Shown in pieces: positions 62,095-62,742 of a DNA stretch of 64,000 bases. Position 1 is the first letter of the stretch, and each line of letters starts with the position of its first letter. Source of the stretch: Deltaproteobacteria bacterium UBA2409 (lineage in GTDB: Bacteria; Bdellovibrionota_C; UBA2361; DDRT01); the NCBI GenBank assembly GCA_002343185.1, contig DDRT01000016.1, forward strand, positions 11,072 to 75,071, written 5' to 3'. A program made the position numbers and the translations under genes. Under the pieces are notes generated by a model. The model made no database searches. It had not been told where the DNA came from and saw only the letters and a program-made list of their open reading frames with translations.

Positions 62095-62123
62095 AGTTCG
62101 GGTGGCACTTCGTTTTTTTACTT

Positions 62124-62151
62124 GGGGGTCAGGCCGGCAGGCCTGACCCCC
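62124..62151. repeat. Single REP-like palindrome (GGGGGTCAGGCCGGCAGGCCTGACCCCC)
   Basis: Same family as the elements at 11399 and 17653. Lies 30 bp past the rluB stop. Confidence 0.8.
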
Positions 62152-62160
62152 AAGCTAACA

Positions 62161-62489
62161 TTTTCCCTGCGGGGCAGTCGGTTCAAATCACTAAAAATTC
62201 TTTGGGGTGAACGCGCGATGAGCGCGAGAGGGGCGAAGCCCCTGGGCATGAGCGCCTAGCGGCAAAAATTAAAAATTGCGGGGGCCGCGTTTTCGATTCG
62301 CTGTGCGAATCGAGATTTGAAGCTATATTTTCCCTGCGGGGCAGTCGGTTCAAACCGGAATGGATGAATTAATTGAAAAAAATTGCGGGGGCCGCGTTTT
62401 CGATTCGCTGTGCGAATCGAGATTTGAAGCTATATTTTCCCTGCGGGGCAGTCGGTTCAAACCGGAATGGATGAATTAATTGAAAAAAA
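62161..62489. repeat. Tandem array of 107-bp repeats carrying tRNA-end-like fragments: two full units at 62276-62382 and 62383-62489, plus a diverged partial unit at 62161-62275
   Basis: Each unit starts with ttgcgggggccg, identical to the first 12 nt of the tRNA-fMet 3' end on this strand. Each also contains the hairpin tcgattcgc-tgt-gcgaatcga and a T-arm-like ccctgcggggcagtcggttcaaaccgg. The third unit runs into the real tRNA at 62490. Confidence 0.8.
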
Positions 62490-62563
62490 TTGCGGGGGCC
62501 GGATTTGAACCGACGACCTCCGGGTTATGAGCCCGACGAGCTACCTGGCTGCTCTACCCCGCG
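62490..62563 (-). tRNA. Initiator tRNA-fMet (anticodon CAT)
   Basis: The reverse complement reads CGCGGGGTAGAGCAGCCAGGTAGCTCGTCGGGCTCATAACCCGGAGGTCGTCGGTTCAAATCCGGCCCCCGCAA. It has the C1xA72 mismatch, three G-C pairs in the anticodon stem, the CTCATAA loop and a TTCAAAT T-loop. No CCA is encoded. Confidence 0.9.
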
Positions 62564-62633
62564 ATAATTTTTGGTAGCGAGTTGCTCCGTGCAATCGCAA
62601 AGCGATGGAACGGTTCCCGAAGGGACAGAGCAG

Positions 62634-62659
62634 GCTACCTGGCTGCTCTACCCCGCGAT
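62634..62659 (-). repeat. Duplicated 5' fragment of tRNA-fMet (acceptor 5' strand plus D-arm), ~70 bp upstream of the intact gene
   Basis: gctacctggctgctctaccccgcgat is identical at 26/26 to 62540-62565. The adjoining sequence does not fold into a tRNA. Confidence 0.75.
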
Positions 62660-62742
62660 GTAGAGTTGGAGGCTACCATAAATGAAATTGTTGCTCAAAT
62701 AACTGGATTTTAGTGGTTAATTTCGGCTAGGCTATCCTCCTC

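Follow-up and report, generated by a model that had tools for sequence, protein, structure and literature searches.

Tandem repeats carrying tRNA ends flank an initiator tRNA gene in an uncultured Bdellovibrionota bacterium and share the architecture of tRNA-linked repeats

How does an initiator tRNA gene come to stand between copies of its own two ends? The question is raised by a 64,000-nucleotide stretch of DNA (hereafter the window) from Deltaproteobacteria bacterium UBA2409 (contig DDRT01000016.1), an uncultured Bdellovibrionota/Oligoflexia bacterium (G+C ~39–40%; RluB ~60% identical to the nearest GTDB species representatives, which are named as Bdellovibrionota/Oligoflexia). There, the interval bounded by rluB (61366–62094, + strand) and the aldehyde dehydrogenase gene Aldedh (starting at 62743, + strand) contains an intact tRNA-fMet gene whose flanks are rearranged on both sides. 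Established marks of an initiator tRNA can be read in its sequence, namely A11:U24, a C1-A72 mismatch and an anticodon stem that is closed by three G-C pairs, and CCA is not encoded. In the sense of the tRNA, the locus is ordered as a promoter-like site, a 12-nt leader, a fragment of the tRNA 5′ end (F), a spacer (X), the tRNA, two copies of a 107-nt unit (A) and a distal trailer (B), the last consisting of a GC-rich two-hairpin unit (62270–62190), a 28-nt block (62187–62160) and a GC palindrome (62154–62121) adjoining the end of rluB (Table 1). We conclude that the repeats are probably tRNA-linked repeats (TLRs) that arose by local segmental duplication, with one end point within the tRNA gene, and then decayed. 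The structure is genuine and well supported, and represents a new example of the TLR architecture, in a new phylum and at an initiator tRNA gene; it is a known oddity rather than a new system.

On the 3′ side of the gene, Tandem Repeats Finder located the array at 62271–62501 (period 107, 2.2 copies, 100% identity), i.e. two full units and the 17-nt beginning of a third, and this is the sole long-period non-coding tandem repeat of the window. The original prediction, made by a model from the sequence of the window, had counted three units at 62161–62489. The repeats are real, but 62160–62270 is not one of them, having only a 28-nt block in common with the units and being otherwise a distinct GC-rich element. 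Each unit A contains a T-run and an antisense T-arm block, then TAGCTT, a hairpin with a 9-bp stem, AAAACG and a 12-nt tRNA end; the predicted hairpin is indeed present in both copies. Read as its reverse complement (the 12-mer TTGCGGGGGCCG), the tRNA stretch 62–73 is found at 62276, 62383 and 62490 (0.06 expected by chance), at each site within an identity block of 12 nt of tRNA and 5 nt of trailer. The units had been described as beginning with this 12-mer; in the tRNA sense, every unit A instead terminates in it (CGGCCCCCGCAA, present three times together with TTTTT), and 62160–62270 does not start with it. As had also been predicted, the array continues in register into the tRNA's own 3′ end.

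The T-arm-like segment of the unit (GTCGGTTCAAA-CCGG), likewise seen by the original prediction, is antisense to the tRNA, and none of 1000 shuffles matched as well. It belongs to the 28-nt block, which is an antisense copy of the T-arm of the gene's own tRNA (13–16 nt) followed by CCCCGCA (0/1000 shuffles score equally) and is found in three exact copies, one in each unit and one distal, with none expected by chance. The distal copy reads as the antisense T-arm followed by the acceptor 3′ strand (13-nt antisense match, 0/1000 shuffles). With one indel allowed, the stretch that unit A and trailer B have in common extends to ~36 nt; past it, each shows a hairpin and then AAAACG, the hairpin regions themselves being not alignable. 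Unit A thus looks like a diverged paralogue of trailer B. Because it includes this ~36-nt block copied from the adjacent trailer, the repeated DNA is at least partly local, not foreign.

On the 5′ side, the duplicate of the tRNA 5′ part that had been predicted is exact, the 26-nt copies at 62540–62565 and 62634–62659 being separated by 68 nt. The promoter-like site upstream of F scores under the threshold of a consensus scan, and the same geometry of −35, 17 nt, −10, 12 nt and +1 is found before the intact tRNA in two relatives (TTGAAC/TACCCT in L106 and TTGAAC/CATACT in L110). Since this sole conserved promoter-like site is upstream of F, the tRNA is probably derived from a transcript with a ~106-nt leader holding F and X; in other words, the native tRNA promoter would now read F, then X, then the tRNA. 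In the minimum-free-energy fold the first 12 nt of X (CTGCTCTGTCCC) are predicted to pair with F (GGGGTAGAGCAG), which would sequester F in a leader hairpin with the start of X. Several candidate origins of the flanking sequences were rejected. As a copy of the upstream flank, X was not significant in direct orientation, and the 12-nt resemblance of its 3′ end (GCTACCAAAAAT) to the inverted flank was equalled by 41/2000 shuffles; local alignment to the tRNA was no better than for shuffles either when X was taken as an inverted pseudo-tRNA or when the GC-rich unit was taken as a decayed tRNA.

Comparison with relatives, designated here by the handles of their contigs, located the ancestral ends of the gene. 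RluB was a poor anchor for this comparison because its closest relatives (L103, L104 and L105) have no tRNA within reach, whereas Aldedh gave a graded series. In L106/L107 (Aldedh 94% identical) the intact tRNA (− strand) adjoins the very flank that meets F in the window, so F sits where the 5′ end of the gene was located ancestrally. In L106, L110 and L111 this end is present in a single copy. Either a 94-bp insertion or duplication entered the gene in the window, or L106 lost it via recombination between the 26-nt repeats. On the other side, the tRNA 3′ end of L110 (81%) is directly followed by 5.2 copies of a 67-nt GC-rich unit homologous to window 62190–62270, and in L112 (82%) the tRNA is followed by GC units and then by CCGGATTTGAACCGAC-AAG-CCCCGCAGGGAA, the orthologue of the distal 28-nt block of the window (L112 236–267). 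In both of these relatives the intact tRNA 3′ end adjoins the ...TTTTCCGCTAGGCGC trailer that in the window follows the distal 12-mer. This order indicates that the ancestral trailer consisted of the tRNA, GC unit(s) and the antisense-T-arm block. By this comparison, the GC-rich unit 62190–62270, whose motif occurs once in the 64-kb window, is the ancestral sequence after the tRNA 3′ end, and the two A units separate the tRNA body from its original 3′ end and from the trailer, which now comes after the most distal 12-mer.

Variation at the locus, for which the original prediction had proposed a comparison across strains, was observed both in the number of units between assemblies of the species and in the arrays that flank the gene in relatives. 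The same flank carries unrelated arrays in L007 (40 nt, 2.5 copies) and L010 (23 nt, 5 copies). L007 also contains a degenerate repeat of the tRNA 3′ end, in sense orientation and with a trailer unit of its own behind it, as well as an antisense T-arm block and a 5′ fragment ending at tRNA position 23/24, as in the window. Relatives differ in how the tRNA cassette is oriented with respect to its neighbours: the window, L004, L106 and L110 have it on the minus strand, L007–L010, L108/L109 and L112 on the plus strand. Looked for as possible members of a dispersed (REP/MITE-like) family, the 107-nt unit, spacer X and the GC-rich unit gave no further copy in the 64-kb window or at the loci of the relatives, and in the data searched the 107-nt unit is present in this species only. 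Contig breaks inside the tRNA (at 21/22 in L004, L109 and L112; at 47 in L106 and L111) were considered as extra 5′ duplications and left unused, because breaks of a de Bruijn graph (k=31) at single-base differences between co-occurring relatives, such as those at T-stem position 51 and D-loop position 17, explain them equally. Between rluB and the tRNA-fMet array, a zeta-toxin/AAA_33-like gene together with a small open reading frame (ORF) was observed in L110 (2999–3734), L103 (1521–2087) and L115 (2778–3525); the presence of this pair in close relatives and its absence from the window species indicate that the interval gains and loses accessory genes.

The architecture of the array has a precedent in Escherichia coli K-12, in which 22 TLRs are distributed over ten loci with one to five per locus (PMC8144298). 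Their earliest description, in 1978, concerned tyrT (Egan & Landy 1978; Rudd 1999; summarised in PMC8144298). By definition, each repeat and the tRNA upstream of it share an identical 3′ end (18–19 bp in E. coli), and the repeats have no known function save for three rRNA-operon copies reported to bind Hfq and CsrA (PMC8144298). An E. coli tyrTV control analysed with the same tools gave a period of 178, 3.1 copies and 95% identity, with an array (505–1063) overlapping tyrV (1045–1129), just as the window array (62271–62501) overlaps the tRNA (62489–62564). Like the tyrT/tyrV repeats (178 bp, 3.14 copies), the window array directly follows its tRNA on the downstream side, shares its strand and is in register with its 3′ end, and each unit ends in a block identical to that end. 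The copy number, two identical units and one older, diverged trailer copy, falls within the range of one to five, and the repeats of both organisms are GC-rich, contain hairpins and are largely without known function. They differ in that the tRNA block of the window is 12 nt (17 nt with trailer) rather than 18–19 nt and CCA is not encoded, in that the host is represented by a Bdellovibrionota metagenome-assembled genome and the gene is an initiator tRNA, and in that the window has in addition a 5′ counterpart (F and the spacer) and inverted T-arm copies. The Rfam model of the E. coli repeats, RtT (RF00391), gave four matches (133–138 bits) in the control and none at E≤10 in window 61000–64000; the window array is therefore a TLR analogue by architecture, not a homologue. 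The alternative offered by the original prediction of a tRNA-derived structured repeat was thus right in kind.

Flank copies of this sort are not restricted to tRNA-fMet. The tRNA-Leu(CAA) gene (L001 13941–14025), ~1.3 kb beyond the end of the window and ~2.7 kb from tRNA-fMet, has a 67-nt partial copy of itself at +169 nt, with an identity of 90% in this species and of 85% in L106 (region L001 13941–14194; L106 2740–3260) and a similarity that fades gradually toward the 5′ side with no sharp boundary. At least this flank copy is plainly a decaying tandem gene copy, showing that tandem tRNA duplicates do decay to fragments in this lineage. Upstream of tRNA-Leu, L110 (7700–8250) has a 79-nt duplication of the promoter and a 5′ fragment, and both L106 and L110 carry, 74 nt upstream, an inverted copy of the anticodon arm that matches the stem of their own gene (CCACC versus CCGCC). 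Partial direct and inverted tRNA copies in the genes' own flanks are thus a general feature of the lineage. The description of the fMet locus as unusual was overstated for this lineage, in which relatives and a second tRNA gene have similar flank rearrangements. The tRNA-Leu gene itself is inverted in L108/L109.

How the present arrangement was generated can be proposed as a series of steps. A tandem duplication of the tRNA plus flank would have had one end point inside the gene, for which reason each copy would carry a piece of the tRNA; the redundant copy would have been deleted or have decayed; further unequal exchange or slippage would have followed among the resulting repeats; and small template-switch events at the tRNA hairpins would have added the inverted arm copies. 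On the 3′ side, the tRNA end plus trailer would have been duplicated and the older copy would have diverged (unit A versus distal trailer B), after which unit A would have been re-duplicated recently into two 100% identical units, whose number unequal crossing-over or replication slippage may alter. On the 5′ side, a 94-bp duplication or insertion would have parted the original 5′ end (F, next to the native promoter) from the regenerated intact tRNA. F, the spacer and the units would probably be transcribed as pre-tRNA leader and trailer and removed in processing, and the repeats may be neutral by-products.

This proposal resembles what is known of tandem tRNA duplicates and pseudogene remnants, in which duplication of the tRNA plus flank and internal deletion give promoter-proximal 5′ and trailer-proximal 3′ fragments, as here. 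E. coli metZWV is a multi-copy operon of initiator tRNAs. In contrast to such duplicates, the fragments in the window are perfect and not visibly decayed, and no second intact tRNA-fMet was found at the locus in any relative examined. Several further points weigh against local duplication followed by decay. The 28-nt block is 28/28 identical in its three copies while its flanks are not alignable, a misfit with simple neutral decay. Comparison within the window detected no local source for spacer X and ~50 nt of unit A. The 5′ fragment boundary at 23/24 recurs in the distant L007 and in none of the closer relatives, which suggests either that the process is site-specific or that the fragment was repeatedly lost. 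From geometry alone, tandem duplication and integrase-mediated insertion cannot be told apart. Finally, one assembly of the species (NCBI GCA_002344365.1) lacks one of the full units but shows no other difference, so that copy number is one or two units across assemblies; this difference could be short-read assembly collapse rather than true polymorphism.

Table 1. Features of the tRNA-fMet locus (window coordinates)
Feature	Position	Strand	Remarks
Intact initiator gene, tRNA-Met(CAT)	62489–62564	−	ARAGORN; Rfam tRNA 60 bits
107-nt unit, copy 1	62271–62377 (tRNA-sense phasing 62276–62382)	−	100% identical to copy 2; missing in NCBI GCA_002344365.1
107-nt unit, copy 2	62378–62484 (tRNA-sense phasing 62383–62489, directly after tRNA)	−	100% identical to copy 1
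9-bp-stem hairpin, TCGATTCGC-TGT-GCGAATCGA	62293–62313 (unit 1) and 62400–62420 (unit 2)		Inverted-repeat search, folding
Distal displaced copy of tRNA 3′ end, CGGCCCCCGCAA, joined to ancestral trailer	62276–62287	−	12-mer search and L110/L112 comparison
GC-rich trailer unit, single copy, hairpins GGGGC-TTC-GCCCC and CGCGC-TCATC-GCGCG	62190–62270	−	Homologues in L110, L112, L117, L004
Distal copy of 28-nt block	62160–62189 (block 62187–62160)	−	(GA)TTTGAACCGAC-TG-CCCCGCA-GGGAAAAT, tRNA sense
GC-rich palindrome, 15-nt arms, 4-nt loop, just past rluB stop codon	62121–62154		Inverted repeat; member of GGGGGTCAGGCC family
Fragment F, tRNA positions 1–23 (24 nt) and 2 leader nt	62634–62659	−	26/26 identical to 62540–62565
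Spacer X, 68 nt	62566–62633	−	Between F and tRNA
Promoter-like site, TTGAGC-17 nt-TAGCCT	62670–62698	−	By eye; 12 nt upstream of F

The palindrome that forms the distal end of the tRNA trailer is a member of a dispersed family of GC-rich palindromes (GGGGGTCAGGCC...GGCCTGACCCCC), for which 7 matches were found in the window versus 0.09 expected. Besides the copy at 62121–62154, copies are located at 11399–11470, 17653–17724 and 29217–29228 of the window, and a related palindrome with 37-nt arms is found beside tRNA-Leu (L001 14227–14300); these palindromes look like REP-like elements or bidirectional terminators. A 56-codon ORF at 62183–62353 (− strand, TTG start) was rejected as a gene, being unrepeated and without signs of coding. 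Another repeat of the window, an imperfect 18/27/45-nt tandem repeat at 51717–51862, is within a collagen-like (PF01391) coding region and is unrelated to the array.

Fragments of the 5′ end of tRNA-fMet were also sought in metagenome contigs by a pattern scan that by design detects only a 23/24 boundary, and for this reason cannot show a hot spot. Most matches proved to be variant tRNAs, coding sequence or an adapter chimera (L099 46–69, where the fragment is fused to an Illumina adapter, AGATCGGAAGAGC, an assembly or library artefact); a few were true fragments, in unrelated lineages. In the soil metagenome contigs L084 (2515–2712), L085 (4634–4879) and L094 (1356–1553), the 5′ half of tRNA-fMet (positions 1–38) is copied 120–170 nt upstream of the gene, and after this copy come a long hairpin and a GC hairpin. 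The three sequences have diverged but keep this architecture, with changes that appear compensatory, and it is not covered by any Rfam family. The tRNA-fMet of L084 and L094 is downstream of 23S/5S rRNA genes on the same strand (~2.5 kb; within ~320 nt of 5S). In L055, L065 and L076, a tRNA-fMet-like 5′ part enters non-tRNA sequence right past the anticodon (..GGTCATAA|TAGGTGCC..), a second 5′ part is present 564 nt downstream, and no tRNA is called by ARAGORN. The initiator tRNA may here be disrupted or contain an intron.

Instead of being by-products of duplication, the repeats might be functional RNA or cis elements of the tRNA operon, acting for example as small RNAs released by processing, as signals for processing or termination, or as stretches that would pair with the body of the pre-tRNA. 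We consider this rather unlikely, even though there is a precedent in the functional spacers of E. coli pre-tRNAs, namely the 3′ETS of leuZ and the TLR-derived small RNAs RrA/RrB/RrF (PMC8144298). Those spacers are transcribed together with tRNA or rRNA and released by processing, as the window units would be on this reading. The signs of conservation that speak for function come from the relatives: the GC-rich trailer unit is kept next to tRNA-fMet, its hairpin 2 showing a single compensatory change (G:C to C:G) and its 5′ part (CCGCTAGGCGCTC..GCCC) being strongly conserved; the antisense T-arm block, kept in the window, L112 and L007, agrees with the T-stem of each genome; and the antisense anticodon-arm copy before tRNA-Leu co-varies between L106 and L110. 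This covariation, however, comes from very few sequences and could be caused by gene conversion or quasi-palindrome correction. Each unit also contains a terminator-like signal consisting of a small GC hairpin and a T-run, but on the plus strand, antisense to the tRNA. In addition, array units are wholly different between lineages, the 107-nt unit having been found only in this species, and their fold energies are near those of shuffled sequences (z-scores unremarkable at −1.4 to −2.4). Covariance-model searching of 61000–64000, a check that the original prediction had suggested, found no Rfam 15 family except the tRNA itself, other matches having E>1 and lying far under gathering scores.

The original prediction had also read the repeats as att-site scars. 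According to this explanation, the 3′ part of tRNA-fMet was the recombination target of integrative elements, and the 5′ part that of another; the gene was regenerated, its original ends were displaced, and the elements were later deleted to remnants of 95 nt and 68 nt, of which the 3′ remnant was then duplicated. The geometry is indeed exactly that of attL/attR: direct repeats of tRNA segments bracket inserted DNA, and the displaced, ancestral ends are distal while the regenerated ends are proximal, as in prophages, genomic islands and cis-mobilisable remnants that target tRNA genes and leave the intact gene at one junction and a displaced fragment at the other. The locus is moreover a rearrangement hot spot, with the zeta-toxin-like module standing between rluB and the array in close relatives and not in the window. 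The tRNA cassette is inverted in L108/L109 and L112, and the 5′ fragment boundary is the same in two distant lineages.

Each of the other defining features that we tested, an integrase and a foreign, mobile-element-related insert, fails. No integrase Pfam family was present among the genes called from 10 kb upstream to 10 kb downstream, nor was an integrase found beside the true 5′ fragments of tRNA-fMet in other metagenome contigs. The direct repeats enclose only 95 nt (twice) and 68 nt, tiny inserts without cargo and partly of local origin. The unit-specific sequences and the junction of the 5′ fragment had no exact match in 2.9 million viral contigs, and the 334-nt repeat region no blastn match in phage genomes or plasmids. 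The identity block begins in the 3′ strand of the T-stem (position 62), while integrases that target tRNA genes reportedly cross over in the T-loop or the anticodon loop in most cases (Williams 2002). The gradual decay of the tRNA-Leu copy likewise lacks the sharp identity boundary of a crossover point, and, in contrast to attL/attR repeats, there is an event on the 5′ side as well. We therefore regard att-site scars as unlikely.

Within the duplication model, the inverted copies of tRNA arms would be mutational debris, and the idea that they are selected cis elements is a doubtful one, to which we attach little probability. It is prompted by two cases, the antisense T-arm 17–300 nt after tRNA-fMet and the antisense anticodon arm 74 nt before tRNA-Leu, both of which track the genome's own tRNA sequence across relatives. 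If it were true, arm copies in leader and trailer would pair with the pre-tRNA body and steer its folding, processing or termination, the tandem units would multiply such a device, and the lineage as a whole would regulate tRNA maturation in this way.

An assembly artefact, either a spurious tandem duplication or a chimeric metagenome join, is highly improbable. In its favour, the units exceed typical k-mers in length and show 100% identity, their number varies between assemblies, and two contigs end in this region (a Logan contig at the rluB palindrome, and the ENA contig within the array, where it begins), but the junctions unit–tRNA–X–F are identical in four assemblies of the same species made by different projects and assemblers (the window, NCBI GCA_002344365.1, JGI 3300013771 and ENA ERZ761604). 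The identity of these junctions shows that the structure is real, and leaves only the number of identical units uncertain or variable.

Repeats of this kind interrupt metagenome assemblies at tRNA genes, and genomic-island att sites can be wrongly read into them. The TLRs of E. coli, on record from 1978 onward, are still without an accepted origin or function. That a non-homologous array of the same architecture is present in a distant phylum argues for a general mutational process at tRNA genes, and against a single inherited element as the source of TLRs. The relatives of this bacterium, which include the pre-insertion state, differing arrays on the same flank and a decaying tRNA-Leu copy, provide material from which such a process could be reconstructed in stages.

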